This document shows positions 12,066 to 51,180 of a stretch of 64,000 bases of DNA, piece after piece. This stretch comes from Chiloscyllium plagiosum. Taxonomy: Eukaryota. The translations under genes were made by a program, and so were the position numbers. The stretch is from assembly GCF_004010195.1 (NCBI RefSeq), contig NC_057729.1, forward strand, positions 45,982,241 to 46,046,240, in the 5' to 3' direction. The notes below the pieces were generated by a model, which saw only the letters and a program-made list of their open reading frames with translations, was not told the DNA's origin and ran no database searches. Numbering within the stretch: the first letter of the stretch is position 1; each line of letters opens with the position of its first letter.

Positions 12066-12295
12066 TCAAGAACAGAAGTTGCTGGAAAAGCTCAGCTCGT
12101 CTGGCAGCATCTGTGAAGAGAAATCAAAGTTAGCGTTTTGGGTGCGGTAACCCTTCATCAGAACTTCCTCACTGGACCTGAAACATTAACTCTGATTTCT
12201 CTTCACAAATGCTGCCAGACCTGCTGAACTTTTCCAGCAACTTCTGTTTTCGTTTCTGATTTACAGCATCCACAGTTCTTCCGGTTTTGATTTTT
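12066..12295. mobile_element. Palindromic PLE-terminus mini-element, family B, degenerate hammerhead cores
   Basis: Left arm from 12071 (aacagaagttgctggaaaagctcagc) pairs with a right arm ending at 12248. The minus strand reads CTGATGA-A-GGGT...ACCC-AAAACG. Confidence 0.85.
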
Positions 12296-13844
12296 AATTT
12301 TCCATTCATAAAGTTGATGGACTTATTCTAAGAAAGGCTATCACCTTTCTGAACTTAGTCAGCCAGGATAGTATAGGTCTAGAAATTAATGTTGAATATT
12401 TTCATTTTTATTTAGTATTTCTAATTTTTTTTGTGTCATGAGGTTCACAACCTTGCATTTCAACATAAGCCTCAGAATGACTATGAATTTCTTGTTGTCT
12501 ACTTTATAACATGTTTGCAGATGTTATAGGAGTGAGAAAGAAAGCTGTGAATTCTGGAAGCTGAATAAGGACTAGGTGATGACAATTGTCCAATCTAGTC
12601 TGTGAGGACATGTTGAACGACGTTGCCACAACAGATCCAAGAGTTAGGTGCCAAACTGACGAATTCATCATTTAGACAAATATTTCTATTGGCATCTACC
12701 ACGGATAAGAGACCAGTTCCATTCATTATTATCTTATCCTTTTTAGATACTTGTCTGCAGTCAATGACATTGCTCCTAAGAGGGTGCAAGCTGCATTTGG
12801 ATTCCTTTTGCAGTAAAAGGAAACCCGATTCTAGTTCACACAGAATATAGATTTGTTTGAAAAGCTGCAATTACTAAGTTATTGATTTACCATGCGGTCG
12901 GAAACAGATATGTTTGAATATTAGAACCTGCATTACACCCCTCTTGCAAAATCAATTGTGTGCAAATGTCAAATCTGAGTAAGCAAGGAATGAAGGCCCA
13001 AGGGATCGGTCCCTATTTGCCTCCTAGTTCGGAAAATGAAAAGGGATTCATCACATGTGAAATTGGAAAAATTAAATGCACCGCCAATTATGCAGAACCA
13101 ATGCCTGAAGTGTCTTAAACAGGTGAAGGCCATTCAGCTTTCCAAACATGCTTTATTATTTAATTAAATAATGGTGGATCTGTACTTCAATTCACTTTCC
13201 TTGACACAGTGTGCAAGAAGAAATGTTTTTGGCATCAACAAGCCGAGCAACTTAGCTGTGTCTTTCCCATTTTTACTTCATGTTAATTCTATTTTGTTTT
13301 ACTCTCAGCAGGTGGTGGGCATTAACTGGGGATTCATTGTGCCCCTATAAATCCAGACAAACTAAACCTGTGGTTGTTGGCTTGGCAGGCTTGTAATGTG
13401 TGACTCCATAAATAATTTCTTATTTAGTGTGAAGGTTGGTTCCAGTTCTATCCTGCAACAGCTGGCTTTTTACAATATTAATACTTTTGGCTATTAATGT
13501 CTTACCTAGAGATGCTAACTCATGAAATTGTGTGATCCACAGGTTCTGGCAAGCTAAACCAAATGCTTGTTTTTCATACATGTAAGCTGTGGCTTTAACG
13601 TCAATTATTCACCTGACTAGACAATTTTATGATAGCAACATCAGAGGTAAAACTGATCCCACCTCACTTAACATTTGCACTTTCCAGAAACCTAGAATGA
13701 ATATTCTCGTAGTTTTTTTTAGCAAGTACAGGAGTCTGTGGGGAAATGTGAACCCTAGCAGTTCCCTGATTGAAAACTCAACATAGGCTTGTAATGGAGC
13801 TTTCCAGTCAGTCTGGTTCAATATCACAACACTTACTTATTGGT

Positions 13845-14104
13845 GGGCGGCATGGTGGTACAGTGGTTAGCCCTGCTGCCTCACAGTGCCAGAGACCGGG
13901 GTTCAATTCCCACCTCAGGCGACTGACTGTGTGGAGTTTGCACATTATCTGTGTGGGTTTTCTCCGGTTTCCTCCCACAGTCCAAAAATATGAATTGGTG
14001 AATTGGCCATGCTAAATTGCTTGTAGTGTTAGATGTAGGGGAGTGGGTGTGCTTTGGCGGGCTGGTTGGGCCGAAGGGCCTGTTTCCACACTGTAAGTAA
14101 TCTA
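13845..14104 (+). mobile_element. HE1-type V-SINE
   Basis: A box TGGTACAGTGG, B box GGTTCAATTCC, V-domain and LINE-like tail 'gggccgaagggcctgtttccacactgtaagtaatctaa'. Confidence 0.92.
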
Positions 14105-14619
14105 AAAAAAACCACCAGGAGCAAAAATGTAGTGTTTCGATTTTTTTATTCCCAACGTATCTCCATTTGAACTTTTTGATACAATTACCCAAATTTTCAT
14201 TTGTGTAATATCTTCCATTTGGGAAGCAGTTTAACTCCAAGTCTTAGTTGGGAACAGATTATCTGTCCAACCCAAACAAGGTCACCCAGATGGAGGAGAT
14301 GTGGCTAATGGTGAGAGTGCTGAAGGGACGTACAGATTAAGGTTTACCATGTTTCCATTACAGTCAAATGACAGATACATGCTTAATAAGTACTTTACAC
14401 TTGTACCTGAAAACACACCTTCCCCACCCCACTAGGATTCTGGCCTGGATCAAGGTCTAGACTCTGAAATTTTTTATTTAGCATTCTTTTCACAGTCTTC
14501 ACAAGAGGACTCACAAGCTCCTTTCTAAAATCTTTCTGATCAGTATTAACATCCTCCCTCACCAGACTAAAATGCAACATCTGTGGCTGATGTGATTATC
14601 AGCAATATTGAAGTAAAGT

Positions 14620-14868
14620 AGGAGTTCTTGTGGTGCAGTGGTAATGTACCTACCTCTGGGCTAGGAAGCTGGGTTCAAGTCCAACCTGTTCCAGAGGTGA
14701 GTGATAATATCTCTAAACAAGTTGATGTAAGGCAAATGTGAGGCTGTTGTAAGGAGTTTGTGTTGCAGTGATAGTGTTTCCATCTCTGATCCAGGAGGCC
14801 TGGGTAAAAGTGCCATGTCTTCTAGTGCATGTAATAACACCTTTGAACAGGTTGATTTAAAAATCTCT
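14620..14868 (+). mobile_element. Tandem pair of ~115-bp tRNA-derived short SINE units
   Basis: Two units 'tgtggtgcagtggta...ctgggttcaagtcc...ctctgaacaggttgatt'; the same pair recurs at 23165-23416. Confidence 0.75.
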
Positions 14869-14934
14869 ATTGAGGAGGTCCCCCATACAAATTAGGAGTA
14901 AGCCATTTGGATATCCTAGCCACTGTATTAGATT

Positions 14935-15563
14935 CATAGATTCATAGAGATGTACAGCATGGAACAGATCCTTCGGTCCAACCGACCAGATATCCCAACC
15001 CAATCTAGTCCCACCTGCCAGCACCCAGCCCATATCCCTCCAAACCCTTCCTATTCATATTCCCATCCAAGTGCCTCTTAAATGTTGCAATTGTACCAGC
15101 CTCCACCACATCCTCTGGCAGCTCATTCCATACACGTACCACCCTCTGTGTGAAAAAGTTGCCCCTTAGGTCTCTTTTATATCTTTCCTCTCTCACCCTA
15201 AACCTATGCCCTCTAGTTCTGGACTCCCCGACCCCAGGGAAAAGACTTTGCTAATTTACCCTATCCATGCCCCTCATAATTTTGTAAACCTCTATAAGGT
15301 CACCCCTCAGCCTCTGACGCTCCAGGGAAAACAGCCCCAGCCTGTTCAGCCTCTCCCTATGGCTCAAATCATCCAACCCTGGCAACATCCTTGTAAATCT
15401 TTTCTGAACCCTTTCAAGTTTCACAACATCTTTCTGATAGGAAGGAGACCAGAATTGCATGCAATATTCCAACAGTGGCCGAACCAATGACCTGTACAGC
15501 CGTAGCATGACTTCCCAACTCCAGTACTCAGTACTCTGACCAATAAAACAAAGCATACCAAAC
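14935..15563 (-). mobile_element. Young CR1 (HER1-like) 3' fragment
   Basis: ORFs 15005-15196 and 15251-15556 (LVRPLLEYCMQFWSP, RGDLIEVYKIM); repeated TCATAGA tail. Confidence 0.93.
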
Positions 15564-15979
15564 GTATTCCTGCAGAATTAGGAGTGGATGTTACCTGTTG
15601 TCATATATTCCAGATTGCATCCTCTGATTTGTAATCTGTTCATTTTGATGTAAAACGTTCAATGAGATTGACAGCCACTGGTGAGGCATTATAGCAAAAA
15701 TCAAAATATCAATGGAAACTTAGTAAATGAAAATGGAAATTTTTTAACTCAAAGCAAAATGTTCATCTCCCTGGGTGAAGATGCACCCCTGCCCCTGCCT
15801 GATAGGCCTATACAGTGCAGATTGTCTCTGCAGGTTCTGTGATTGCCATTCTATCCTGAGTATTAGACCAATTGAAAAACCTATTTACTTTATTAATCTA
15901 GCTACTGAGCAAATTTTACCTTCAATCACATTTATCTGATGCTTCAATGGGTGAATAAGGAATGCGGCAGTGATGATTT

Positions 15980-17140: not shown

Positions 17141-17235
17141 GAATTTTTAAGTACAATTTTCAGTCTATGTTACGTTAACCTCTCCTATCTCTGGTTTTGG
17201 AGCCATTGAGATATGGTAGGAAATGTAAAGTGGGG

Positions 17236-18445: not shown

Positions 18446-18669
18446 GGAGAAAGTGAGGACTGCAGATGCTGGAGATAGAGTCAAGAGTGTGTTGCTGGAA
18501 AAGCACAGCAGGTCAAGCAGCATTCAAGGAGCAGGAGAATCGATGTTTTGGGCATAAGCCCTTCATCAGGAAAGACTCCTGATGAAGAGCTTATGCCTGA
18601 AACATCGATTCTCCTGCTCCTCGGATGCTGCCTGACCTGCTGTGCTTTTCCAGCAACACACTCTTGACT
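18446..18669. mobile_element. Palindromic PLE-terminus mini-element, family A, two divergent degenerate hammerheads
   Basis: Arms 18479-18571 and 18577-18669 are near-perfect reverse complements. Cores TCATCAG (18563-18569) and CTGATGA (18579-18585). Confidence 0.9.
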
Positions 18670-19569
18670 GGGAATGTTATCCTCCAGATTTGAATTTTTG
18701 ATGATAACCTTTTTAAAAAGTGCTTTTTGTAAACCATTTTTCTGTCTTTTTGATCTCTTCCTCTTAATCCCTTTTCCCTGTCATTATTTTGCTTTCTTTA
18801 AGTGATATGTGGCATTGAACCAAACTGACACATCCTGCTTTAAATGCTATATCCCTGAGAAAGGGTGCTTCTTCACCTTAATTGGTTAATAAGACCACTA
18901 CTCACCCTATTCACCAAAGTCTTCTCGCCCTTGTAGATGGTGTTCAATTAAAATAATTTTCTAATCATAATCCGTTCTTGTATAAAGACCCACAGAAATT
19001 TTGTGAAAGTGTAATGACAGAAAAATGTGGTTATTATTCAGTTGGGCAATATGATAATACTACAAGAAATGAGCACAAAACAGACAAGATCATGAAAGAA
19101 ATAGAAAATTGTGTTGCTGAAATCAGAACTACTCAATGAGTAACAATTTACCATTTTTATAATTAAAAATAGTGCAATCAATTGTCATTTTAAAACCTTC
19201 ACATACAACTTGGTATATTTTTTACCGTAGTTACATTTATATCTATGGGTAATCATATATCTAATTCAGCACTCTACTATGCCTGTGTGCTCAGTGACTT
19301 CATGACTACAATTGAATTAATAGACTGTGGTACACATTGGGCTTTGTTCTAGACTCAGTATGATCTGCAAGCATAGTAATGTTTTTCAATCTTTATTCTA
19401 TGACTTTGCTGTTTTCTTTATGTTGAATTTGTTCAGCCTTTCCGCTGATGGGGCAATTATTAATTGGTAGCTCTTTGTGTTAACACACCATTGACACAAT
19501 GGGATGGCTTTAAAATGGTCAGGTTACTTAGTTATCTGAAAACCGCTCCCCCCCGCCCCCCTCACCTCC

Positions 19570-19695
19570 ATTCCTGAAGAAAGGTTATACCTGCAGCGTT
19601 GACTTCTCCACCTCCTGATGCTGTCTGGCTTGCTGTGTTCTTCCAGCCTCCTGCTTGTCGACTTTGGATTTCAGCATCTGTAGTTTTTTTGTCCT
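19570..19695 (+). mobile_element. PLE terminus, family C, degenerate hammerhead
   Basis: CTGAAGA-A-AGGT-TAT-ACCT-GCAG-CGTT (GAAA mutated), followed by 'gatgctg...ttccagc...cagcatctg'. Confidence 0.75.
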
Positions 19696-20288: not shown

Positions 20289-20289
20289 C

Positions 20290-20900: not shown

Positions 20901-20945
20901 TTAATTGAACTCAATATTTCTACAGTTTAGTTGATTCTGCCATCT

Positions 20946-21076
20946 TCATTCGTGATGAAGGGCTTTTGCCCGTAATGTCGATTTTCCTGCTTCTCGGATA
21001 CTGCCTGACCTGCTGTGCTTTTCCAGCACCGCACTCTTGACTCTAATCTCCAGCATCTGCAGTCCTCACTTTTGCC
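20946..21076 (+). mobile_element. 131-bp PLE-terminus element, family A, with 14-bp TSD
   Basis: Flanked by TGATTCTGCCATCT at 20932-20945 and 21077-21090. Starts 6 nt before the degenerate core GTGATGA-A-GGGC-TTTT-GCCC-GTAA-TG-TC. Confidence 0.9.
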
Positions 21077-22176
21077 TGATTCTGCCATCTACCTTATGTT
21101 GACAGATTGCCTTCAGGTCATGGAATTTTCCGATCCTTCCCAACAATTTCCAGCTTAAAATAGGAGAGAAGTCAGTTGTTCAGGTTTAAGTTCACCCCCT
21201 GAGGTAATTTAAGCCTCAATTTCAATTCCACAGCAGTGGTAAATTTTCATTGACCTTCATATACACCTCCCCAAAACCATTCTGGAATTAAAAAATCAGG
21301 GCTCGTGTGTTGGACTGGAAAGAAATTTTACTGACGTGTTCAGCAATAATCTGTATATCACTTGTTATTTTGAGTAAGTGTGCAATGGCGAGCAGTCAGA
21401 GGTAAAAATTAAGGAACTATTTGGTGTGAAATCATGGGAAGCATATTTATGTAAAGCATATTCTGAGTCACTAACAATGTAAAGCAGATGCTTTCGTTTG
21501 TATGATGCAAAATGCACTATTATCACCTTTATGAGTTTCTCTACGAAGACTGTTTATCAGCAGCTATGAAGATACAAATTCGACATGGCGTGGACAAAAA
21601 GAAGGCAAAGAAACATCAAATGAGTACTCCTACTATCAGCATTTCTCTGCTGTTGCAAGAAATTATGATTAAAAAGGAATGCATTCCTTGAAACAGATAG
21701 ATAAGCATATGAGTATTTTATACAGATTCTTTCCCCTGTGTAGCTTTGAAAACTCAGGCTAACTGCCCCATACAGATGAATTCCTTATTGCGAGTTCAGT
21801 TCCTTGAAGGCTTTGCTACATTTTTTGCTCTTCCACCTTCCAAGTTCTGATTTCCATAAAACATGCAGGAGAAGGTGACTTGCCTGACGCCAATTAATTT
21901 GTTACAAAATATGGCAGAGTGTGAGAAGTGACATTATGTTAATATCAGCTGTGTCCCTTTAAGTCATGCATGTCATATACTGCAATCAAATTTCAAACAT
22001 CACCCATTGCCTAAAGTAATTAAAATGCATATCAGTGAAGGATATTGAGCCCCATTGGTTAAGTAACACACAGCAGACTCATATTTAGAACAGAAAGATA
22101 TGTAGGCTAGCTTCATTTTGAGGGACATATTAAATCTTACATGTAATATAGGATGGAAAAGTAGGTATAGGTACTT

Positions 22177-22936
22177 ATAGAGTCATAGAGATGTACAGCA
22201 TGGAAACAGACCCTTCGGTTCAACCTGTCCATACCGACCAGATATCCCAACCCAATCTAGTCCCACCTGCCAGCACCCGGCCCATATCCCTCAAAACCCT
22301 TTCTATTCATATACCCATCCAAATGCCTCTTAAATGTTGCAATTGTACCAGCCTCCACCACATCCTCTGGCAGCTCATTCCATACANNNNNNNNNNNNNN
22401 NNNNNNNNNNNNNNNNNNNNNNNNNNNNNNNNNNNNNNNNNNNNNNNNNNNNNNNNNNNNNNNNNNNNNNNNNNNNNNNNNNNNNNNNNNNNNNNNNNNN
22501 NNNNNNNNNNNNNNNNNNNNNNNNNNNNNNNNNNNNNNNNNNNNNNNNNNNNNNNNNNNNNNNNNNNNNNNNNNNNNNNNNNNNNNNNNNNNNNNNNNNN
22601 NNNNNNNNNNNNNNNNNNNNNNNNNNNNNNNNNNNNNNNNNNNNNNNNNNNNNNNNNNNNNNNNNNNNNNNNNNNNNNNNNNNNNNNGCTAAGATTTGCT
22701 TTCCCAAAATGCAGCACCTCGCATTCATCTGAATTAGACTCCATCTGCCACTTCTCAGTCCATTGGCCCAACTGGTCCAGATCCTGTTATAATCTGAGGT
22801 AACCCTCTTTGCTGTCCATTACACCTCAAATTTTGGTGTCATCTGCAAACTTACTAACTGTACCTCTTATGCTTGCATCCAAATCATTTATGTAAATGAC
22901 AAAAAGTAGAGGACCCAGCAGCAATATTTGTGGCAA
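22177..22936 (-). mobile_element. Young CR1 (HER1-like) fragment spanning an assembly gap
   Basis: Same tail and sequence as 59910-61000; 'WTEKWQMESNSDECEVLHFG'. Confidence 0.9.
22387..22687. other. Assembly gap (N run)
   Basis: 301 consecutive N. Confidence 1.
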
Positions 22937-26690: not shown

Positions 26691-28208
26691 TACTGCGAGG
26701 TAACAGAAAACTGGAGGGTGATGAGAGTAGGTTTTGTTGTGAGCTTATACAAACAGAACTGGTTATTGTATCTGGGGGGAATTCCTCAGCACTGTTTTTA
26801 AATCATTTATCAAACCCTTTAAAATAAAGTGATTTTTGGCTTATTTTCCCAAGAATGATTCCCAAACAGAGGTAATGCACAAACATTGGAGAGGATGTTT
26901 CATTCTTTGTGGTGATGAGGGTTACAAGGAGAGTTGAAATCAGTAATGATGGTAGCAGACGGTGGTGTTAAAGAAAATAAGATGGAAGAAGAGATTTAAT
27001 TTTAGACTTCCGATTCTCATGTCGCTCTCTCCTTACATTGGAAGTACTTGAACGAAGGATTGACACAGAGAAGAGGGTTTCCTGATTCCAGTTAGTTATC
27101 TGTCCTGAATGCAGGAAATATATGGACAGGTGTAAATAGAAAGCATTAAAGATTTATCAGAGCATCTGCTGATGAGATTATAAAGTTGTTTATTATTAGA
27201 ATAGGTAATGCTTAAGCGAACCTGTTATCACCCATAAAACTCCATCAAGCTGATCTGGTCCCGGTACGTGTACATCTGGTGTTTTTCAGATGTCTTCATT
27301 TTTAAACTATCCATCATACTAGTAGCAGAGACCGCAAAACAGCCACACCGGCACTTTTCAGACTGCTCAGGTGTAGAGCTCGGCTTTGTTTCATGCAAGA
27401 GCGCAAAAGAGCTGAGAGCAGTCCTGCATCAACAGAAATGCATCCCGGGAGCAATCCCAATCTCTGACCTTCTTCATCAGGGTGGCAGTGCAGAATCAGC
27501 TCTCAGCCCCTTCCCTTCCCTGGTTATTAGAACTAGCTCTCAGCTGGCAGACAGCTGTTTTATAGCCCAATAGACTGTGGGCTTCAAACAGCCATTTTGA
27601 ACTTTCAGGGTTGAACTCGATAGATCTTTGTTAGATAGAAAATGAAAGGATGGAGAACAAAGATGGCTAAATTATATGTATAGATTAACAATGCAGTTGC
27701 CAATTTCAAAGTTTGTGGATGATATAAAATTTGGGAGCATTATAAACTGTGAGGAAGACAGTGTTGTGGAACTCCAAAGGATATATGCAAGATGGTGGAT
27801 TGGGGTAGATGAAGTTCAATGCAGAGAAGTTTAAGGCAACACATTGCGATGCAAAGAACATGGACAAATAGTATAAAATAGAGGTTATTATTCTAAACTA
27901 CGTGCTGTAGTAGAGAGATATAGGTGTATTCACACAAATCATCAAAGGTGACAAGACTGGTAGAGAGAGCAGTTAATGAATCAAACAGTGCTCCAGTTTT
28001 TATTCATGGAGGTGTAGAATGTAAGAGCAGGAAGTTATGCTGAATCTGTATAGGGCATCAGTTAGACCTCACCTGAAGTTTTGTCTATAGTTCTGTGTGT
28101 CACATTTTAGGAAGGATGTGATTGCATGGGAGAGAGTTAGGGTTAGGGTTACCTAAATAGACCCAGGGATGAGGACTTTCAGTAATGAAGAATGTTTTGA
28201 AAAGTTGA

Positions 28209-28425
28209 TATGATTTGGAGATGCTGGCGTTGGACTGGGGTGTACAAAGTTAAAACTCGCACAACACCAGGTTATAGTCCAACAGCTTTAATTGGAAGCA
28301 CACTAGCTTTCGTAACGATCGAGCCCTCCACAATCACCTGATGAAGGAGCATCGCTCCGAAAGCTAGTGTGCTTCCAATTAAACCTGTTGGACTATAACC
28401 TGGCGTTGTGTGATTTTTAACTTTG
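28209..28425. mobile_element. Palindromic PLE-terminus mini-element, family D, with 10-bp TSD
   Basis: GAAAAGTTGA at 28199-28208 and 28426-28435; inverted arms 28246-28312 and 28358-28424. Confidence 0.9.
28335..28369 (+). ncRNA. Minimal type I hammerhead ribozyme motif, intact core
   Basis: CAC-CTGATGA-A-GGAGC-ATC-GCTCC-GAAA-GC-TA|GTG: all core nucleotides present, 5-bp stem II, palindromic AGCT stem III, stem I CAC/GTG. Predicted cut after 28366; activity untested. Confidence 0.78.
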
Positions 28426-29717: not shown

Positions 29718-29813
29718 TCTCCTGCTCCTCGGATGCTGCCTGGCCTGCTGTGCTTTTCCAGCAATGCACTTTTCTACTCTGATCTCCAGCATCTACAGTC
29801 CTCACCTTTTCCT
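29718..29813 (+). mobile_element. PLE-terminus fragment, family A, starting just after the predicted ribozyme cut site
   Basis: 'tctcctgctcctcggatgctgcc...ctccagcatctacagtcctcacc'; CCATCTCC on both flanks (29707, 29818). Confidence 0.8.
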
Positions 29814-36420: not shown

Positions 36421-36788
36421 AACAATAGACATCTCTATCAGACAGCCTTGGTAAAATCATTGAGAGACAAGCTGTTTACTAAAACTGCTCAGCCGTGGTC
36501 ATAACACTTTGCAGAGATCATCATTCTATTTATTAAAAGGTGTGTGCTATAGTTGTGTTTGGTCATATCAGCAGAGATTATCACTGGTAAGGGCAAAGTC
36601 TCCATATTGATTCCCTTTACCTTTAACAGAAAAATATTTCACAGTTTGGTGCTGACTGTTCACTAACCAAGCCACACAATTTGTGGCATGTATAAAGGAA
36701 GAACAAAATTATTCATCTAAAGCCTTATTTTTCTTGATGTTAAAAATCACACAACACCAGTTCTAGTCCAACACATTTAGTTGTAAGT

Positions 36789-36821
36789 ACTAGCTTTCGG
36801 AGCGCTGCTCCTTCATCAGGT
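36789..36821 (-). ncRNA. Minimal type I hammerhead ribozyme motif, intact core
   Basis: Minus strand AC-CTGATGA-A-GGAGC-AGC-GCTCC-GAAA-GC-TA|GT, in the same sense as the GIY-YIG ORF. Predicted cut between 36791 and 36790. Confidence 0.75.
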
Positions 36822-37180
36822 TGCTAGTGGGGTAGGATCATAAGACACAGAATTTATAGCATAAGATCATAGTGTCATGCAACCGATATGATATATTGAA
36901 CCAACTTACATTGCTGTTAAGTCTTTCATCTTTGAGAATGGGTTGCAAGTTTTGATTCAGTGATACGTAAATCCCAGAATTTCTTTCAAGGCACATACCT
37001 GAAATAACTTAAGGTTTTATAAAAAAAGCTGACATTTCAGTTCAGGCAATGCATTAAAGGTGTGAGGTTAGAGTCTGTCTGTATCCCAACCTTGAGTCAG
37101 ACTTGTTCTATTTCCAAAGTAGCAATTTATAAAATGTCACGTGGATTGACTGCCTGGATTGACGGCCTGCAGATTGTGTG

Positions 37181-37263
37181 GTGCTGGAAAAGCACAGCTA
37201 TGCTTTTCTAGCGCCACATGTTTTCAGTCTGATCTCCAGCATCTACAGTCCTCACGTTCTCCT
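37181..37263. mobile_element. 83-bp family A PLE-terminus insert with short inversion and 16-bp TSD
   Basis: GCCTGC(A/C)GATTGTGTG at 37165-37180 and 37264-37279; hairpin 'gctggaaaagca...tgcttttctagc' plus tail. Confidence 0.82.
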
Positions 37264-37347
37264 GCCTGCCGATTGTGTGTTTTGAACAAAGTAGAATGTA
37301 TCTGCAAATACAATTCTGCAAATGCAAATTCACCCCATAGATTTATA

Positions 37348-37550
37348 TGTGTGTGTGTGTGAGTGTGTGTGTGTGAGGGNNNNNNNNNNNNNNNNNNNNN
37401 NNNNNNNNNNNNNNNNNNNNNNNNNNNNNNNNNNNNTGGGTATGAGTGTGGGGTGTTTATGTGTGTGTTTCTGAGAGAGAGCATGTGTGTGAGAGAGAAT
37501 GTGTAAGTATGTAAAGGTGTGTGTGTGTGTATGTGAGAGTGTATAGTGTA
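37348..37550. repeat. Imperfect (GT)n/(GA)n microsatellite containing an N gap at 37380-37436
   Basis: Directly visible dinucleotide runs inside the PLE 3'UTR. Confidence 0.95.
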
Positions 37551-37556
37551 GTGGGG

Positions 37557-37935
37557 TCACCTGTAGTGTGACATGAACCCAAGGTCCCAGTTGAGGCCAT
37601 CCTCATAGGTATCAAACTTGGCTGTCAGCCTCTGCTTGGCTAGTCTTCGTTGTTGCGTATCCCGAAGTTTACCTTGGACGATTGTCACCTGAAGATCCGA
37701 GGCTGAATGTCCTTGACCACGACGTGTTCCCCCGCTGGAAGAGAACATACCTGTCTGACAATTGTTGTGTGGTGTCCATCCATCCGTTGTCGTAGAGTCT
37801 GCTTGGTCTCTCCAATGTGTCAAGCCTCAGGGTATCTTGTCTGCAGCATATGAGATAGACAATGTTGGCCAAGTCACATGAGTACTGCCATGTACATGGT
37901 GGGTGGTGTCCCCACATGTATCCATGTCGATCCTC
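37557..37935 (-). pseudogene. Frameshifted GIY-YIG endonuclease domain of a Penelope-like element
   Basis: 'YSCDLANIVYLICCRQ' and, in another frame, 'GHSASDLQVTIVQG...RRLAKQRLTAKFDTYEDGLN' (VY...C, H, GLN motifs of PLE endonucleases). Confidence 0.85.
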
Positions 37936-37945
37936 TGACATGTCT

Positions 37946-38302
37946 TAGAACATAGAACATAGAAAAATACAGCGCAGTACAGGCCCTTTGGCCTTTGATG
38001 CTGTGATCCAAGCCCACCTAACGTACACTAGCCGACTATCCTCCATATGCCTATCCAATGCCCGTTTAAATGCCCATAAAGAGGGAGAGTCCACCACTGC
38101 TACTGGCAGGGCATTCCATGAACTCACGACTCGCTGAGTAAAGAATCTACCCCTAACATCTGTCCTATACCTACCACCCCTTAATTTAAAGCTATGCCCC
38201 CTCGTAATAGCTGACTCCATACGTGGAAAAAGGTTCTCGACCAAAACTGCATACAATACTCCAGATGCGGCCGCACCAGAGTCTTATACAACTGCAACAT
38301 GA
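37946..38302 (-). mobile_element. Young CpG-retaining CR1 3' fragment with internal deletion, inserted in the PLE
   Basis: 'TRGHSFKLRGGRYRTDVRGRFFTQRVVSSWNALP' is joined directly to 'LYKTLVRPHLEYCMQFWS'; tail (AGAACAT)n. Confidence 0.9.
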
Positions 38303-41300
38303 GAGAATGCAGTGGTTGCCATGAGAGGGTTGTACCGTGTTGTGATCGATGTCCTGTAGGCTGGGCAGTCTGTGCGAACAATCATCTGTTTAAGGTTTGG
38401 CGAGAAATGGAGGTGTGGGGAAAGCCTTGGCAAGTTGCTCATCCTCATTGATAATGTGTTGCAGGCTGTGAAGAACATGGTGTAGTTTCTCATTGTGTAA
38501 TCATCTGCTTCAAGTCCAATGCTTCTGTAGTGAAATATGTTAATCACAATGAGCCACCATGAAGGCCCAAGTGTATTAGTGATAGCAACCATTGATCTTG
38601 GTGCTGTTGCCCATAATGTGAAGCTGCTGGCTTTAGATTGGCCAGTCACTCTCATCAACAGGCTATCTTTCAACTCCTGTCCCCGACCTTACATTCAAGG
38701 GCTTTACATGATATTTTACCCAAATTTTATAGTCAGTGGCAAATGGACCTTAAAGAAAGCTATGCATAAAGATCTAGTTATCTCTGCAGTGTGGATTTCA
38801 CCATTCCTAATATTAGTTTGAATCTGCTGCCAAGTCAAAGTGATTTCCAATAACAGTGATACCATCAAGTAGGACTGGCAGCCAAACACATTGAAGTATT
38901 CTCACAGATAGCAAGTTAGAAGTAGAATGCATTATTATGCTTTATTTTTGTTAACTTTTACAGCAAGTAATATAAATGATTGGAACACCTACATTAGAAA
39001 CTGAAGCATCATAAAGTTTTAAAAATGCACTGAAAGTTTGTATTTTTGTGATTGTACTTTGTAGTTCCAGAATGTCATTGTACAACTGTAAGATTTAAAT
39101 CTGTCAAGTTGGAGAGGTTAAAGTACAATAATTCTATTGTTAAAAATACAAGCTGCCACTCAATCAGGAAGGTGCAACTTTGCCAAGGATTCTCATAACA
39201 TTTCGAACAGCTTAAAAGGCCATATACTCCTCAGTTTACTGCCTTCTGCTTGATTGCAGAGGGGAGGGGCGTTCAATTGTGCACCCTCTGGAAAAGTCTA
39301 GAATCGTTAACAGCTTCTCGATTTCTTGGATTTGAGTATAATGTGCAGATTCCCAGCTAACGTTAGTTTCAGAGAACTCATGGTGACAAACTCTGTCAGT
39401 TTCAATGTGGCTATTACTGCAAAACTTGGCCACTGAGATAACTATTACAAGAAAGCACTTACTCTCATTTCATGCTTAGAAAATGTGGAATCACTCAGAA
39501 GAAAATATTCCAAACACTTAGGACTTTGGCATACATACAGCTGCAGAGTCATTTTCTAAAATTGACAGTTAAAAACAAAGCAAAAAAAACATATCAATAG
39601 TGAGGCACCTATAAATGTAATATTCATTACAGTTATATATCTCTATAAATGATTATAATTCCTCATAAATATTGACAGAGTCTTGCGCACTATAGAATGT
39701 TGGCGGGAGATAGAGTTTTCTCACCACAGTGACCAGAATGATTCCTCTGTCACACTGAGCACTCAAAGACATGATATGATATATTCTGCACACCTGTATT
39801 AACACATGGGATTGAAACACTTTAAAATTTAGGTAAACCATTAAAATAATGTGTCTGTTATTATGTCGAGATTGGCCTCATGCAACACATTGGCCTGTCA
39901 TGAGGTTTGTTTCAAGCTTCATAATGAAAGAAGTTTTCCTTAGGGTAGCTTTGGCTTCTGAGACTAATTAAACGGAAAAGAGCCCTGTCCGAACAATTGA
40001 GTAAACTGGATTGACGGATTCGCTTATTGTCGGGAAATATTGCCTGACAATGTAGAGGCTGTAAAGAAAAATTAATACTAATGTCTGAACACCATCTTAG
40101 GTATGGCATGCCACTAATACTTGTTCACTAATCTGAAAAGTCACCTTACTTATTGAAGATGTTTAAAGCTTGGATCAAGTCACTCAGGATGACACAAGCT
40201 TCAAGCCTTATCTTCAAATTAGCTAACAAAGAGCCATTTTAAAAAAAAAATCTAAATATAGTTGGAAAGAAATCATAAAATGACTTTAGAGAAATGTGGT
40301 GATACAGCGTTGGTGAGGATATCTAATTTAAAAATGAAAAATCCTGTTCGACCATTAGCTGACTGCCATAATTAATCCTGCCTGGTTTCGAAAGAAGTGG
40401 CCGTTTTTTCTTTGTGACCACTAGAGAGCACAATTCATCTAAATGACGATTAATTGGTTAGCAGCCGTTTCAGGGCCAGTGTTGATCTGCTCAATTTATA
40501 CTGAGTGCTTAACTCCATCCAGTCATGGCCCTAATTAAACTGCTGTAGATGATCTTAAGCCTATTTTAAAGTTTGATGAAGAATTGATCAGATGAACAAA
40601 CAGGAAATTTAACTCTGAGTCGAACAAATGCGGAATGAGGGACTGGGGAAATATATGAGACAGTGTTATGGACTTGTCTAAATTCAGGCAGCGCAGGGTG
40701 CACCTGAGAAAATAAATTGATTTATTTTCTAAATTGATGTTTATCTGCTGGAATTACATGGGCTGGCCGCAGTTTACAATATAGGTGGCATGTCTGGTGA
40801 TTAACCCTTATTTGGTCATTGTGAGGGGTGAACCCAATTCAATATGAAACAATCCCCATTCTTCTCCACCGATCTTAATTAGCAGCAACAGCTGCTGTGG
40901 GTTGGGAGAAAAAGATGAAGGGCAGCCACACGAATACTTTCCCAGTACATTGCTAACCACTCCATCTCACTTTCAATAGCATCATTTGTCTTGTAGCAAG
41001 GAATAAGCTGTGATTCATTAGAGATGTCAGTTACCACTTAATAACTCCTAGTCCCTTTTCAAACATTTACAGGCTGGGCTTCAGTGTTGATTTTCGAAGA
41101 GTCTCTTTGAATGGAGCTGACATAAATCACACGTGCCCTTAACTCACTCTAACTCATCTCAAAGTGTATTTGATATGGGTGACATGTTCTCTTGGTATGC
41201 TGGCACAGTTGCTAATTTCACCAGTGCTCATGGAAGTACGCCTAATGATTATACTAATTTTGTGTGGCTGTCAATTTTCTACGTACCCATTGCATCACAA

Positions 41301-42084: not shown

Positions 42085-42445
42085 TCTTTGGATGAGTAAT
42101 GCAGATTCACAGGCTATAATGTTCTGCGGACAGAAGTTTCAATCTGACAATGGCAAATGGTAAAATTGGCATTCAAATTTTTAACAATTTAAATTAAAAG
42201 ATAGCCTGTTGGTGACTATCCAACCATTGTTGATAATCGTAAAAACCCATCTAGTTCATCACGCCCTTTAGGGGAGAAAATTTACAGTCCTTGCTTATCT
42301 GACTAACATGTGACTCCAGTCCACAGCAATGCATTTGGATCTTAACCACCCACAGAAGCGGCCACGCATTGCTGCTAGGTTCCAAATTAGAGATGTTCAA
42401 TAAGTATTTGACAGCCCAGTGGTGCTCCTGCTGCATGAATGAAAG
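42085..42445 (+). mobile_element. tRNA-derived SINE (family of 17236-17580), degenerate
   Basis: 'aaaacccatctagttcatcacgccctttaggggag...tgtgactccagtccacagcaatg'. Confidence 0.7.
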
Positions 42446-42448
42446 AAA

Positions 42449-42625
42449 AAAGTCAGAAGTCACACGACACCAGGTTTTAGTCCAATAGGTTTATGTGAAA
42501 TCATATGTTGAAGGGGCTGCGCTCCAAAAGCCTGTGATTTCAAGTAAACCTATTGGACTATAACCTGGTGTAATGTGACGTCTGACTTTGTCCACCCCAG
42601 TCCAACACCAGCACCTCCACATCAT
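42449..42625. mobile_element. Palindromic PLE-terminus mini-element, family D variant
   Basis: Arms 'aaagtcagaagtcacacgacaccagg' and 'cctggtgtaatgtgacgtctgacttt'; degenerate core TGTTGA-A-GGGGC-TGC-GCTCC-AAAAGC; CATGAATGA at 42434 and 42623. Confidence 0.82.
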
Positions 42626-42721: not shown

Positions 42722-43400
42722 TTTATTTGTTTATGGGATGAGGGCACCTTTGGCCACGCCAGCATTAATTGCCCCAACCCTAATTGCCCAGAGGTCAGTT
42801 GTGAGTCAAGCACATTGCTGTGGGTCTGGAGTAATATGTTTAGATTAGATTCTCTACAGTATGGAAACAGGCCGTTCAGCCCAACAAGTCCACATCGACC
42901 CTTCGAAGAGTAACCTACCCAGCCCCATTCCCCTATCCTATATTTACCCCTGACTAATGCCCCAACGCTATGGGCAATTTAGCATGGCCAATTCACTTGA
43001 CCCACACACCTTTGGATTGTGGGAGGAAACCAGAGCACCTGGAGGAAACCCATGCAGATACAGGGAGAATGTGCAAACCCCACACAGACAGTCGCCCGAG
43101 GTAGGAATCAAACCAAGTCCCTGGCACTGTGAGGCAGCAGTACTAATGACTGAGCCACCATGCCACCCTACTTTTTATGTAAGTCAGACCAGGTAAGGAT
43201 GGCAATTTCCTTCCCAAAAAGAGGTTAGTGAACCAAATGTGTTTTTCCAACAATTAACAATGAATTCATGGTCATCATTAGATTCTTAATTCCCCCTTTT
43301 CTTCATTGAATTTAAATTCTACCAACTGGCGTGGGAGAAGTTGAACCCAAGTTCCCAGATTATTACCTGGGTCTCTAGATTTACAGTCCAGTGATAATAC
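42722..43400 (-). mobile_element. tRNA-derived SINE (family of 17236-17580) split by HE1
   Basis: Host reads 'gggtctggagtaatatgt' before the insert and resumes 'atgtaagtcagaccaggtaaggatggc' after it. Confidence 0.82.
42841..43167 (-). mobile_element. Full-length HE1-type V-SINE
   Basis: A/B boxes, V-domain and TAGAT-repeat tail. Confidence 0.92.
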
Positions 43401-44190: not shown

Positions 44191-46753
44191 AAGTCAATGT
44201 AATCCACATTGCTCAATGTAGCATAACAAGATGACTGTTTTTAATTCGACTCATTCTATAACTGTTGGAATAATAAGGATTTTGTTATGTTGGAGTGCAA
44301 ACTGTGCTCTTTTAATCAAATGGGTATGGTTTAAACTCAACTTTAAACACAATGTTCTCTTAGGGAGATAATTAAAAATAGCATTTTAGTTGGATCTCTT
44401 TTAACCCCTTACCTCTTACTTTACTTAGTGTATATTTACCCAGGTCACCATACTTATAACATGAATTAACTGACATTAGATTTCCTGTGTCAGACTAAGT
44501 CAATATCTCAGTGATGAGTTCCAGTGCTCATGTACTGGAGAGTTCTGTCAGGCTGGAGTTCTCTATTGATAACACATGTTTCAATTGAAGCAGTTTTACA
44601 TTTTGAGCAGAGGTGGTTCACTGCAGACAATGATACTGGGATAGCTCAACTCCTTGGAAAAAGTGAAAACAAAGTTCAAATCAAAAGTCCAAATCAGGTA
44701 CACAGGCCACCTTCAGGAGATTGGAGACTGAATTACATTAATGTCTATTGGCTGTGACCTCTGACACTCGTGACCAATACAGCTTGTGGCTTTCATCTAT
44801 TTCTTAATCATGAGGGTTAAGGTTGTGCAATGAGAGTTTCGCTTTTGAGAATTATCCAGCTTTGACAGTTTCACAAACTGCGCACACTATTCATTTTTTT
44901 GGTAGCAGTTCTTACTGTTCAAAGATCTCTGAGCAATGATAGGTGATGTCAAACACACTATTTTCTTGTACAAGTACGTTTTTCAGCTCATACTTATATG
45001 TACAGTACTGTGACATTTTTTCTATCACCTATTATATTAACTGGTGACAGTGCACGTGTATTAAAATGTTTATGCAAATGCTTCCTCGCCTTTGCAATGC
45101 ATTTGTTGTTTTTGCTGGATTGGTTTTACTTCACAGTTTTCTTGAAGTTTGCCCTTTAAACTTACACGTGTATGCTGCTAGTTTCATTTTGAATGGAATC
45201 TTTATCTTGTCTTGGCATCAATGAGATTGAAAGTTAATAAATCACTACAAACAAATGAATGCTGTATCTGAGACAAAGAGACCTAACAACCTAACAAAAT
45301 TGTCAATATTCAGTTCTGTTTATCACACTTTGGTGCAAAAAAGGTTTTCCACAACGACCCCATTTAAGAGTCAACAGTAAAGCTAATTCTCAGTAACACA
45401 TCTGCCTGGAGCAAATTTTGATATCTTCTCATGCAAACTGTGTGATTTCTTTCCCTCAATTGTGCTCAATTGAAAAAAGTCAAGTTGCAGAAAAGATGGA
45501 TTGTCAGCAAAAGGGAAGATTTGCCACCTGTGTTTTATGAGGGCTGTTGTGGGTTCAGGCAGTGCATTGTTTTTACCTCAAGGATTCAGAATGACTATAG
45601 TGCCAATCTATCCATTCCCTTCATTTTCCTCACTCTCATTATAACCAAATGTGATCCGCTCCTTGTTGTTCCCGATGTAAACAAGGCTCTTGATCTTTTC
45701 GCCTTCCCCCTGCAGATAATTCATTAAGATGGCAGGTAGCTCGAATCCGTCTCCCTTCAGTCATCAATATTTCATAAACTACAGTGACAAATTTATTTTA
45801 ATGTGCTTCACAGCAGCTAGTGATTGATCAGAGGCTCAAAAATATGACACGTTTCAAAGCGGGATATTCATGGAGTGTTTTAGTGAATACATTAGTCAGT
45901 GGAATGGTGAGTGAATTTATCATAGTTATGGGTCTCAGATCCATCCATTTTGTTTAGCAAATGACAGCTGCTATCTGCATGACGGTATTGATTGAGCACA
46001 AGGGTTCATCTTCAAGCACATCTAGTTAGTGCAGTTTGGATGAAATTAATATAATATGGAAGATTGACGCCAGAACAATCAGAGCATGGCTGAATTATTG
46101 ATTAATAATGTCAGAAAAATATAACTTTGGACTATTAAAAGTACAAATTATATATCTCACATGATACCTCCTCAATTTTCCCTTTTTATTCATAAAATAT
46201 TGAGGCAAGTAAATGAAACCTGAAAGCTGCTTCTTCAATTTAATGTAAGAGTTGCCAATGTTTCTGCTGCTTCCATTTAACAAGGCAAAGGAACCCTTGC
46301 CATCCGCAATTTTGTATTAAACCGGCAAGTTGTATGAAGTAACAGACAGAAGAAATGGGCAGCACTCTGCGATGGAAATCCCATTTGTCTGAATTTTTAT
46401 GAGTGTGTATATTACTTAAATATAAAAAGCACATAAAAAGGAACAGGTAGAAAGCATAGATGTGCATCAATTTGAGAGCTTAAAGCTTGTCTACATTGAG
46501 GAAGAGGAAGAGTGGGGATAGACAAAGGATGTACATAGTTCTCCTGAAGATATCTTTATTTCCTCCCCAAGGCTGGCATACTGTGGATCCAAAATTACCT
46601 GGAGTCACATGCCATCTTACTTCCTCAAAATCTCCCAAACCAGAGAAATTAGCAGGATTCATAAATAGACTGAACTAAATTTCAACACAGATTCATTTTA
46701 CCACATAAGGCAGTTTGTTTTGCAGATAGACAGCTAAAATAAGAGACAGAGCT

Positions 46754-46841
46754 AAAAAATACACAACACCAGGTTATAGTCCAACAGGTTTAATTGGAAG
46801 CACACTAGCTTTCGGAGCGCCGCTTTTTCATCAGGTGGTTG
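46754..46841 (-). mobile_element. PLE terminus, family D, hammerhead with damaged stem II
   Basis: Minus strand CAC-CTGATGA-AAAAGC-GGC-GCTCC-GAAA-GC-TA|GTG; AAAATAAGAGAC at 46736-46747 and 46857-46868. Confidence 0.85.
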
Positions 46842-47159: not shown

Positions 47160-48218
47160 TGGATGAAAATGGGTGGGTTAGTAAGTTTGCAGATGACACA
47201 AAGATCGGTGGAATTGTGGAGGGTGTAGGAGGTTGTCAAAAGATATAGCTGGATATAGATCAGTTGCAAATATGGGTGGAGAAATGGCAGATGGAGTTTA
47301 ATCCGGCCAAGTATGAGGTGCTGCACTTTGGGAGACCAAATGCTAAGGAAAAGTATTCGGTTAAGGGCAGGTTTTTGAACAACACTGAGCTACAAAGGAA
47401 TCTTGGAGTTTAAGTCCATAGCTCCCTGAAAGTGGCCACACAAGTAGTTAAGGTGGTAAAGAAGGTGGCTGGCATGTTTGCCTTTATTGGCTGGGACATT
47501 GAGTCTGATTATCATGTTGCAGCATTATAAGGTTTTGGTTAGGCCGCAATTTCATTCAATTTTGGTTGCCACATTACAGGAAGGATTAGAGGCTTTGAAG
47601 AGGGTGCAGAAGAGTTTTACCAAGATGCTGCCTGAATTAGAGGTTATGAGCCATAAGGAGAGGCTAGAAAAACTAGGATTGTTTTCTCTGGAGTGGCGGA
47701 GACGCAGGAGAGACCTGATACAAATCTATAAAATTATGAGATGCATTGGTAGGATTGACAATCAGAATCTTTTTCCCGGAGTGGAAATGTCTAATACAAG
47801 GGGGCATGCATTTAAGGTGAGAGGGGGGAAGTTCAAAGGAAAGGAAGAGTGTAGAGGGACATGGGTCAAATACTGGCAAATAAGACTGGATTAATTTAGG
47901 GTATCTGGTCGCCAAGGAGGAGTTGGACTGAAGGCTCTGTTTCCATGCCGGACATTTGTAGGATTCTATGAGATGAGAGGGGCAAGTTTTTTTTACACAG
48001 AGGGTTGTAGGAGCCTGGAATGTGTTGCCAGGGGTGGAGGTGGAAGCAGATATGACAGGGGCGTTTAAGAGGCTTTTAGATAAGCACATGTATATGCAAG
48101 GAATGGTTAGATATAAACTAAGGGCAAACAGAAGGGATTAATTTAATTCAGTGTCATGTTCAGGACAACATCGTGGGCTGAAGGGGCTGTTCCTGTGCCA
48201 TTCTGTTCTATGTTCTCT
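47160..48218 (+). mobile_element. CR1 LINE 3' kilobase with a nested ~130-bp HER1-like tail (47841-47970)
   Basis: 'agtaagtttgcagatgacacaaag' (SKFADDTK) and ORF 47478-47894; host resumes at 47971. Confidence 0.9.
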
Positions 48219-48279
48219 ATTCTTTGTTAATAGATTACTGTTTGTGGTAACTTGTGGTGCTGTGAAATGGCATGGATAT

Positions 48280-49185
48280 CAGTGCTGGGGCCTCAGGCTA
48301 GTTACAATCTATATCAACGACCTGGATAAAGGGACTGAATGTATGGTCGTAGCTAAATTTGCTGATGACACTGAGATAGGTAGGAAAGTAAGTTGTCAAG
48401 AGGAGATAGAGAGTCTGCAAAGGAGAAGAGATAGGGTGAGTGGACAAACATTTAGCAGATAGATTATAAAATGGGAAGTGTGAACTTGACCACATTGGTC
48501 TGAAGAATAGAAAAGCAGTGACAAGAGATTGCAGAACTCAGAGGTACAGAATAACCTGAATATCCTGATACATTTAACAAAGGGTTAAATGGAATATTGG
48601 CCTTTATTGCAAGAGGAATTGAATATGAGAGTGCAGAAATTTTATTGCAGCTGTAGAGGGCCTTGGTGAGACCGTACAAAGTGCAATTTTGGACAAGGAT
48701 ATGAAAAAAGATACTGTTGCATTAGAAACGATTCAGAACGGAATCACTCGATTCGTTCCTGGGATGAAGATGTTATTGTATGAAGAAAGAATGAATACGT
48801 TGGCCTTCAGAAGATCTAATTCAGATGTATAAGATCCTGAGGGGATTTGACAGGGTGAATTTTGAGACGTTATCTCTGGTTGGAGGTAAGATTAAATTAG
48901 ATGACACAGATTAAAAATAAGAGATCTTGTTTTTAAGGTGGAGATGTGGAGAACGTTTTTTCTTGCACATGGTTGTTAATCTGTGGAATTCTCTTCTGCA
49001 AAAAAAAACAGCAGAGGTTGCATCATGGAATTTATACAAGCTGTAGGCAAGAGACTATGGGGTTCTTAGAAGCAGACCGGAAGTTGGAGTTGAGAACACA
49101 AATAGATTACTGTATATTTATTGGATGGAAGAGTAGGGGTAGAACAGGTGAATAGCCAATCCTGGTCCTAAGTCTTACATTCCTA
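48280..49185 (+). mobile_element. Old CR1 LINE fragment
   Basis: 'IYINDLDKGTECMVVAKFADDTEIG'. Confidence 0.85.
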
Positions 49186-50191
49186 TGTTACTGGAAACTG
49201 GTTTCTGCATTTCCTAAAGGCATAGTGGTGAGTCTAAGGTGGTTCATCTCAGAATGGAACAGGTTATGCAATACAGTCAAGAAATTCAAGAAGCTAAACA
49301 GCTCATGCAGATTTATCATGTCAAATGTGAAATGATTATGGATTGGAGATAGCTTGCAACATGGTCACATTGATTCTCTAAATTACTGTTCCTTTTCACT
49401 TTTTCTCAAAACATTCTGCAATAACTGGGAATCAGGAGCAGTGAATGAACCCAGCATTTTTATCCCTTTCTCTCATGATTGTGAGAGTTGTTAGAGTTAA
49501 CTTTCTTGCAGCTTCCACCTACAGTTTCAAGGAATAATATATCTGTCCATCATGTTTTGTGCTTGCAATTTGTATTAATAAAGCCAGGACTGCATCAAGG
49601 CTATCATTCAACATTCAAATCATCAACATTTAATGTATTTTGTCCCCTTATCTACAAGAAGAAAAGGCTTGGGTTTGACACATCCCTTCAGGGGCCATTT
49701 TCTGTTGACAGTTTAAAATAAATCCTTTGTTTTTTTTCGACTGATTTTCTTGCACCTTCATAAGAAGACATTTTTTTAATAAATGGCTTCACTATTTTTA
49801 ATGACATTTACATATTAAAAACAACTCCACAATGTGTAATTTTCTCCATTGTCTTGTGATTACTGCCAGGGTCTTGTCGGTAATCATCACAGAAACCATT
49901 TGTTACCTGGTGATTATTTATCTGACAGTGTTAAAAAGGTGAAAGAGAATTCTGTAAAACCTGGTCAGTGATCAAAAGCAGCACATATCTGGATCGTATA
50001 AGTGTAGAGAATAATGAATCATAATGCAGCCAACCTCTGTCAGACTGATGATTTACGCTTTTTCTCAACTATAATAACAAAACATGGGCTTATAGGGTGA
50101 CTTTACAGAGCAAAATGTCTCAGCGCACTTTGTAGGAACATAAATACCCAAAGACACAGAACATTGGTATTTGTGTCAAAACATTTGTTTA

Positions 50192-50517
50192 AGGGCAGCA
50201 TGGTGGCTCAGTGGCTAGCACTGCTACCTCACAGTGCCAGGGACCTGGGTTCAATTCCAGCCTTGGATGACTGTCTGTGTGGAGTTTGTACATTCTCCTC
50301 CGGGTGCTCTGGTTTCCTCCCACAGTGCAAAGATATGCAGGTTAGGTGGATTGGTCATGGGAAATTGCCTCTAGTGTTCAGGGATGTGGAAGCTAGGTGG
50401 GTTAGCCTAGGCAGGAAAATGCTGGGTTACAAGGATTGGGTAGGAGGCTCTTTGGAGGATTGGTGTGAAATCGATGGGCCAAATGGCCTCTTTCCACATC
50501 GTACTTTAGTGATTCTG
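50192..50517 (+). mobile_element. HE1-type V-SINE
   Basis: A box TGGCTCAGTGG, B box GGTTCAATTCC and V-domain. Confidence 0.9.
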
Positions 50518-51079
50518 AGGAGATGGATTTTGAGGAATATCATCAAGGAAGTGAGAGAGGGTTAGGCAAGAGTGAGGCAAAGGGAGAAGTGAATAGACTA
50601 GAGAGCAAAATTGAAGCTGCAAGAATCTCAGAGGCTTTAGTTCTTCATTGGCAGCAATAATGTGAAAGGTGAGAGGATTGATAGAATTGACCCCTGGTCT
50701 AAAGATTGAAAAAAGACCACAGTTTCAGGGAAGCAATTTCTATTCCAAATGTTCAAGGTACACATGCGTGGTTATTAGAAGTTGTCAGAATTGGGCTCCA
50801 CTCTAATGCCCTGCAATTGATTGGTCAATTTACATTTTAGATTCAGTATTCTAATGAGGTATTTTAGTAGCTGGATGTAAAATCGGGCAAGATACCAACC
50901 TACTCCATTGACTCTGCTCTCACCTTTATGGATTTTCTCGTGGCAGGTTCATTTATTTAATTTGGTTAATCTGTGGTATGACATTGCCACAGTGGTGACC
51001 AGAATTCTTAAATTGCTGCAACATTCACGACACCTATGATAGTTTAAAGGGGCGGGCTCCAACGGTTTTTTACAAAAAT

Positions 51080-51180
51080 GTTCCAAGGAAAGCTCATGGA
51101 CCTGAAACATTAACTCAGCTTTCTCTCCACAGATGCCGCCATACCCTGCTGAGTTTTTCCAGCAAATTCTGTTTGTGTTT
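51080..51180 (+). mobile_element. PLE terminus, family B, degenerate core, tail-less
   Basis: 'gttccaaggaaagctcatggacctgaaacattaactcagctttctctccacagatgccgcc...ttttccagcaaattctgttt'. Confidence 0.75.

Follow-up and report, generated by a model that had tools for sequence, protein, structure and literature searches.

Short hammerhead-bearing repeats of the shark Chiloscyllium plagiosum as probable truncated ends of four families of Penelope-like elements

Repeats in the window and their numbers in the genome

The window analysed here is a stretch of 64,000 nt from the 3.56-Gb genome of the shark Chiloscyllium plagiosum (NC_057729.1, 45,982,241 to 46,046,240, forward strand), and position numbers in this text are window coordinates. 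It carries repeats of four families, A, B, C and D, which a preliminary description had presented as distinct short elements headed by a hammerhead ribozyme. These are real repeats with hammerheads, but they are cut-short ends of longer elements: almost certainly the pieces are truncated 3' ends, or pseudo-long terminal repeats (pLTRs), of four endonuclease-bearing (EN+) Penelope-like elements (PLEs). We also hold, with good confidence, the fuller reading that each family of PLE ends has its own hammerhead and that the short copies are likely run-off complementary DNAs (cDNAs).

Family sequence was present at all 15 of the places cited in the preliminary description. A search of the window with family profiles, each built from 30 core-selected loci, found 18 arms that make up 13 insertions, five of them head-to-head pairs (Table 1), and the place at 37176-37258 was recovered by blastn. 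Five of the cited sites are head-to-head pairs, and that at 37181 is likewise a small palindrome. The proposed core, CTGA(T/A)GA followed by GAAA, was found in unbiased copies, but in the window it is kept in full by only two arms, at 28338 (+) and 36819 (-), both of family D and both found by a scan with a minimal-hammerhead descriptor; the pieces at 4701, 10665, 29718, 37181 and 63630 are entirely without it. The four families are not all distinct, as D is separate but A, B and C have a homologous body and are hence related. Nor is the window unusually dense, with 0.28 arms per kb as against 0.34 in 113 other stretches, which is ordinary for this genome. Reversed-sequence controls of the family searches gave 0 matches, as did 508 kb of reversed, complemented and Markov-shuffled controls of the descriptor scan.

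The 113 stretches, each of 10 kb and taken at round coordinates on contigs C1-C29, form a sample of 1,085,227 non-N bases that excludes the two stretches flanking the window. They held 373 arms covering 3.4% of bases, of which 370 aligned to a reference and were grouped as 283 insertions, and 55 intact motifs (1.09 Mb; reversed control 0). Extrapolated to the genome, this gives 1.17 million arms, 0.89 million insertions and 173,000 intact cores (Poisson 130,000-225,000), figures that may be about a quarter high, since the sample contains 38 exact A cores where 29.8 were predicted from the genome-wide count. Exact patterns counted genome-wide matched 93,870 times for A, 499 for subfamily B1, 1,336 for subfamily B2, 350 for C and 2,066 for one D 32-mer, with 0 matches each in the backwards control. 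The very large ribozyme reservoir that had been proposed is thus borne out in size by the exact A cores; about 85% of arms lack a full core (55 intact against 373 arms), and it is mostly dead motif. This scale is about ten times the highest vertebrate count of a 2014 survey of hammerheads.

Parent elements and the hammerhead motif

Each family was linked to its own clade of GIY-YIG PLEs, which upholds both the hammerhead and the PLE parent. The link was scored as the first same-strand hammerhead-family match downstream of the 30 best matches to a GIY-YIG peptide, each set including the query's own locus. For the D-linked peptide this first match was D in 23/30 loci, for the A-linked peptide A in 24/30, and for the B-linked peptide B in 20/30, with B following a nested A in 2 more. 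In family C, a same-strand match to an open reading frame (ORF) lay within 800 nt at 13/30 core-selected loci, and the ORF ended 162-249 nt upstream at 8 loci. The endonuclease peptides fall into four clades that match the four hammerhead types, with support of 95-100 (24 hand-picked rows, bootstrap not fully settled). One locus (L093) has an open frame of 403 aa with reverse transcriptase (RT) motifs (GTAMG, YIDD), a CX4CxxC linker and then GIY-YIG with CCHH, and RT motifs also lie upstream in A and D loci. The nearest Atlas clusters carry HTH_animal, GIY-YIG and RVT_1 (score 0.96). Peptides of all four families have the CCHH motif, two of its cysteines lying between GIY and YIG, the criterion for EN+ PLEs defined in PMC8557442 in its accessible text, and a CX4CxxC linker precedes GIY-YIG in A, B, C and D, which fits Neptune or Nematis without telling the two apart. 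At L028 one D core has upstream of it both a fragment of GIY-YIG and another D end in tandem. In the window itself, the D copy at 36740 runs on, on the minus strand, through an untranslated region (UTR) to a decayed ORF at 37561-38491, which is broken by an unrelated insertion at about 37950-38300. Neither of the two outcomes named beforehand as fatal, consensus sequences lacking the core or terminal-inverted-repeat (TIR) transposons with target duplications of fixed length and no PLE parent, was encountered.

Three observations weigh against this parentage: searches recovered no intact ORF of full length, and five loci with long open frames proved to be runs of N; Pfam RVT_1 matched only below threshold (E 0.0025); and starting from core-selected loci an ORF was reached at only 3, 1 and 3 of 30 loci for A, B and D. 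A Pfam GIY-YIG search of the genome returned one weak match, Pfam on two endonuclease fragments none, and a search of solved structures and an exact protein look-up none. Long PLE copies often end in N (L102-L106; window 22387-22687 and 37380-37436), and intact elements may be under-represented.

PLE ends were also seen nested in or joined to the ORFs and UTRs of other families (L189, L160, window 37176), including a D end on an A ORF and A palindromes within B and D UTRs. At L161 and L153, upstream of the B core, lie more hammerhead-like ends (CTGATGAAGAGTCA...GACTC) that match none of the four profiles; they are likely further, older PLE families.

The motif is a minimal type I hammerhead, with CUGANGA and GAAA, an NUH triplet, paired helices I and II and a palindromic helix III. 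Across 8 subfamilies, majority bases pair in 84/88 cells, as against a mean of 65.5 and a maximum of 77 in 20,000 shuffles; pairs were counted by motif anchoring, and a cross-family MAFFT alignment placed D out of register. This test is partly circular, as the search patterns fixed G10.1-C11.1 and the 5' strand of D helix I, and the subfamilies are kin. Helix I, on which the preliminary description was silent, covaries (AUUC/GAAU, AGUU/AACU, AGCU/AGCU, AGUC/GACU, CAC/GUG), with one U-U mismatch in common A subfamilies and a C-C at the fourth pair in D. Subfamily B2 (L332-L351), absent from the window, has re-paired helix I as AGCU/AGCU, and in the first 100 matches listed it carries U3-A8 in 99, C3-A8 in 1 and G8 in 0; the same core swap occurs in a flatworm, according to the accessible text of PMC4209133. 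Stem II was as proposed in unbiased copies of A, B and D, but that of C is GGGT/ACCC, in 4/4 unbiased arms and in 350 exact matches; the AGGT/ACCT assigned to it is a decayed window copy, and no search was made for an A-U subfamily. The predicted stem III was seen in unbiased copies as AGCT in D and ACGT in A and B, and for C as ACGT at core-selected loci; decay has affected this stem in the 4 unbiased C arms. Rfam reported no hammerhead at gathering score in the window, and none even at E 10 on 28200-28450; such minimal motifs fall outside its models. The ribozyme would be held by selection in master elements only, with inserted copies decaying, and cleavage may take place as a dimer or with the help of protein. 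When two copies were folded together, the strands of helix II were also exchanged and an active dimer was not singled out. Head-to-head arms presumably cannot form a dimer on the same strand, which tandem pLTRs alone could do.

Table 1. Repeat copies and associated features in the window
Position	Strand	Feature	Basis
4701..4728	+	D tail fragment, no hammerhead	25/27 to tail of L012, 27 nt, E 9e-6
10663..10703	+	A body fragment, begins 52 nt beyond core start, no hammerhead	
12058..12294		B head-to-head pair; left arm (-) untailed, right arm (+) tailed; 10-bp duplication; core decayed/truncated	
18446..18672		A head-to-head pair; arm starts -2/-3; tail on left arm; two decayed cores	
19568..19691	+	C single copy; decayed stem II and GAAA	
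20037..20289		B head-to-head pair; tail on right arm; decayed cores	
20944..21077	+	A single copy with tail; target duplication 14-16 bp; decayed core	
28210..28425		D head-to-head pair; left arm with tail, cut within stem II; 14-bp duplication	
28335..28369	+	Minimal type I hammerhead, intact; CAC/GUG in helix I, GGAGC/GCUCC in helix II, palindromic AGCU	descriptor scan
29718..29813	+	A single copy with tail, start +31; 11-bp duplication; no core	
36740..38491	-	Long 5'-truncated D-family PLE copy: ORF remnant, 3' UTR (microsatellite, N gap), pLTR end; nested insertions inside	
36788..36822	-	Intact hammerhead core of D PLE copy 36740..38491	descriptor scan
36853..36858	-	TATAAA, 39 nt upstream of core start, D PLE copy 36740..38491	read from sequence
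37176..37265		Small palindrome of A body and tail alone, lying inside the UTR of the D copy; 16-bp duplication	duplication read by eye
37561..38491	-	Degraded remnant of PLE linker and GIY-YIG endonuclease; stops, frameshifts	tblastn E 5e-15 to 1e-10
42443..42625		D head-to-head pair; tail on right arm; 11-bp duplication; decayed core	
46746..46841	-	D single copy, start -3; decayed stem II	
51080..51180	+	B single copy; decayed core; 11-bp duplication	
63662..63746	+	B body fragment, start near +29; no core	

Two other repeats recur in the window. A long one (313-760, 2782-3213, 14918-15526, 22170-22476, 47177-47971, 56044-56653 and 59910-61382) we take to be 3' fragments of a CR1/L2-type long interspersed nuclear element; a family of 100-120 nt (10548-10665, 13845-13955, 43044-43161, 50189-50298 and 62941-63070) is presumably a tRNA-derived short interspersed nuclear element (SINE), and the A fragment at 10663 adjoins one of its copies.

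Where copies begin and end

Offsets are counted from C3, the first C of CTGA. Insertions have two 3' end positions about 35 nt apart in A (90-94 and 125-129), B and D; C did not resolve. Single arms make up 196/283 insertions, and the pairs are oriented head-to-head in 87 cases and tail-to-tail in 0. In 84 pairs, a count that leaves out C, the 35-nt tail is present on exactly one arm in 69, on both in 2 and on neither in 13 (P 4e-10 against independence). Target duplications of 8-22 bp flank 66/275 testable insertions, as against 9/822 shuffled; they were found in 45/83 pairs and, which counts against the reading as PLE insertions, in only 21/192 single copies. A partial tandem was observed at L028 and a few same-strand neighbours elsewhere (L014/L015). 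Pair junctions vary from copy to copy, several having 1-3 bases in common with the target. Head-to-head arms, lying on opposite strands, fold as hairpins of 60-95 bp. The one at 28250-28419 gave sub-threshold matches to microRNA precursor models from both plants and animals (MIR860, E 3e-12); such hairpins can give rise to spurious microRNA calls and to long double-stranded RNA.

The 5' ends form a continuum that reaches to the ORF, with a cliff at the ribozyme. In A, 58/212 arms begin at -5..-1 and 8 at -30..-11 (44 and 16 on the most extended alignment); in D, 23/70 begin at -10..-1, with a mode at -3, and in B, 11/78 at -5..-1. Subfamily B2 stops exactly at -4 in 11/16 short copies, where the search pattern demanded only -3. 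All four families have an AT-rich box 29-32 nt upstream of the cliff. In D it is TATAAA (-38..-40, 16/19 references), in B a TATA-type hexamer (-32..-34, 7/13 references), and in A and C it is TTATC (-33..-36, in 30/38 and 6/8 rows, respectively). Position -8 is reached more often by D copies than by those of A and B (8/54 vs 3/163, p 0.0008), a shift that accords with the spacing predicted from TATAAA at -40. In A, B and C, not in D, the base at -4 falls within an initiator-like YYANWYY, which is the initiator consensus. RNA reads from a related species, set on the A reference, gave a single listed peak of 5' loose ends at the -4 base (115 reads), a peak that may reflect genomic short copies inside host RNA; run X22 had 0 reads on the A stretch and was uninformative on 5' ends. 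Two other candidates were rejected, a splice acceptor, since B2 short copies retain AG and A has no AG, and a downstream promoter element, whose match is off by two bases.

On the reading as PLE ends, these observations could be joined as follows. A promoter in the pLTR would start RNA at or just before helix I, at -4 in A, B and C and at -8 in D. Priming at +90 or +126 (A) in the first pLTR would then give cDNAs of 95 or 130 nt, and reverse transcription that reaches the 5' end of the RNA would leave a run-off cDNA to be inserted as a short copy. Priming from both nicks, followed by joining of the two cDNAs, would produce the palindromes. For a lizard PLE in vitro, PMC11167929 reports, in the text available, that the protein nicks both strands and that reverse transcription begins at two internal RNA sites, producing the tail. 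PMC3846280, in its accessible text, ascribes head-to-head pairs to self-priming on antisense RNA; the one-tail rule seen here is also compatible with priming at two nicks.

Whether the 5' boundary is caused by the start of transcription we consider an even call. The box of A and C is TTTATC, no textbook TATA box; an RNA 5' end was not seen, as the raw reads show no pile-up of beginnings or ends and D reads extend upstream of -8; the boundary coincides with helix I, which in D can be extended to -6, making an end set by structure possible; and many 5' ends lie inside the ribozyme rather than at its edge. All of this tells against an RNA start and leads to a tentative alternative that we take seriously, namely that the pieces are PLE ends in which the folded ribozyme or a bound protein, and not the start of transcription, fixes the 5' boundary, through drop-off or template switching of the enzyme as it leaves helix I or through an exonuclease stop there. 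It agrees with the modal boundary, which in A and B2 is the opening base of helix I (-4/-3), with the D mode, with ends within the ribozyme and with the bases shared by several junctions and the target. It does not account for the AT-rich box 29-32 nt upstream in all four families, nor for a D cliff that moves to -8 in step with TATAAA at -40.

It is improbable that the short copies are non-autonomous, SINE- or retrozyme-like elements amplified from short masters by PLE protein. They greatly outnumber long copies and have preferred lengths, and PLE-derived non-autonomous retrozymes have been proposed (10.64898/2026.07.22.740005, as far as its accessible text goes); against this, 5' ends grade continuously up to the ORF, the upstream box is missing from copies that begin at -4, pair junctions differ between copies, and insertions are single or head-to-head, whereas that preprint defines retrozymes as tandem arrays. 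Unlike the tandem hammerhead-bearing units of a non-LTR retrozyme, the insertions are single or head-to-head, with a few same-strand neighbours. That RNA cut by the ribozyme served as template, so that short copies record self-cleavage, is very doubtful and as the main route largely refuted: cores and helices are conserved in masters and a few copies begin at +28 to +33, such as that at 29718, but no peak of 5' ends was seen at the cut site (+27 to +30), the 5-nt bins of A from +15 to +34 holding 7, 6, 8 and 8 ends against 58 at -5..-1, and according to the text available of PMC11167929 in vitro insertion needs no cleavage and no reads end at the cut site. Finally, MITEs (miniature transposable elements with inverted repeats), that is, TIR DNA transposons in which the hammerhead match is incidental, would suit the 87/283 insertions that are inverted pairs folding into long hairpins, but are excluded for practical purposes by duplications of variable rather than fixed length, single arms, one-tail pairs, arms of unequal length and parents with RT/GIY-YIG ORFs.

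Family D adds a poly(A) site. In about 2% of run X21, which comes from one sample of a related species, 1,088/2,830 reads on the D reference carry non-templated poly(A) from +55..+58, beginning 12-15 nt past ATTAAA/AATAAA. Both common D variants retain this canonical signal (62/71 copies), and the D insertion 3' ends, at +82 and +121, lie beyond the poly(A) site. The signal region is L013:1540-1560, equivalent in the window to 28375-28395 (+). Within +30..+95 a poly(A) signal was found in 0/75 B and 0/7 C copies and rarely in A (13/184). Rather than element mRNA, the polyadenylated D RNAs could be transcripts of the host that stop at D copies; a signal present in tens of thousands of copies could terminate host transcripts. 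If element mRNA ends at this site, priming can take place only in the first pLTR, and a jump is needed to copy the ORF. On this basis the pLTR might be a retroviral-like U3-R-U5, with a TATA-directed start at the hammerhead, poly(A) just past it and reverse transcription starting 3' of the poly(A) site; a strong-stop-like cDNA would have to jump by way of the repeated hammerhead, the stubs would be cDNAs inserted after a jump had failed, with the ribozyme marking the transfer region. We think this rather unlikely, and the distribution of poly(A) signals favors it in D only. Promoter spacing and the poly(A) site together make one model directly testable.

Relation to known systems

The literature already describes hammerheads within PLE pLTRs, how they spread in truncated copies, and the inverted structure with a tail. 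Our search, largely of paper listings and outside Repbase, Dfam, most subscription papers and the supplementary files of PMC4209133 and the 2026 preprint, found no publication on these four families or their 5' boundary. For annotation, the repeats are to be named as PLE ends instead of MITEs. With hundreds of thousands of insertion ends, the four families offer a natural readout of pLTR formation and of the role of the hammerhead.

The hammerheads resemble those of the 2014 survey, in its accessible part, in the type I core without a stable helix III, the palindromic 15.2-16.2, the base between 9 and 10.1 and G10.1-C11.1, in the occurrence of several families per genome, mostly as single motifs from truncated PLEs, in some close pairs on opposite strands, and in the U3-A8 variant, there in a flatworm. 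They differ in number, the top vertebrate counts there being about 4,000 and 9,000 as against 93,870 exact A cores here, with a different search method. On where truncated copies begin, that part of the survey is silent.

As described in the text available of PMC8557442 (Craig et al. 2021) and PMC3846280 (Arkhipova et al. 2013), insertions of EN+ PLEs share with ours 5' truncation, partial tandems, an adjacent inverted head-to-head copy, a tail of 30-40 bp at one end, palindromic junctions, a putative TATA and initiator in the pLTR, and a CX2-5CxxC linker (Neptune/Nematis); target duplications there are 8-10 bp. Unlike them, the insertions here are mostly of 90-250 bp and, by estimate, number near a million. 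Features of PLE insertion are also described in PMC8969392, as far as its accessible text goes. The Anolis Poseidon element PAc (Frangieh et al. 2024, PMC11167929, text available) is alike in its two internal starts of reverse transcription that define the tail, its hammerhead upstream and the lack of any sign of cut RNA as template; it belongs to the Penelope/Poseidon clade without the linker zinc finger, which is present here. The available main text of that paper has no mention of 'transcription start', 'polyaden' or 'strong-stop'. In fly Penelope the start lies 46 bp plus an intron upstream (PMC2377424, accessible text), an arrangement different from that of the ends described here.

Animal non-LTR retrozymes, in the accessible text of the preprint 10.64898/2026.07.22.740005, likewise carry type I hammerheads akin to those of PLE pLTRs in short units without protein, but they form tandem arrays with a ribozyme per unit, in contrast to the present copies, which occur singly or inverted and grade into parents that bear ORFs. 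Set beside these systems, our data offer the scale of a known kind, together with a mechanistic lead on how PLEs are copied.

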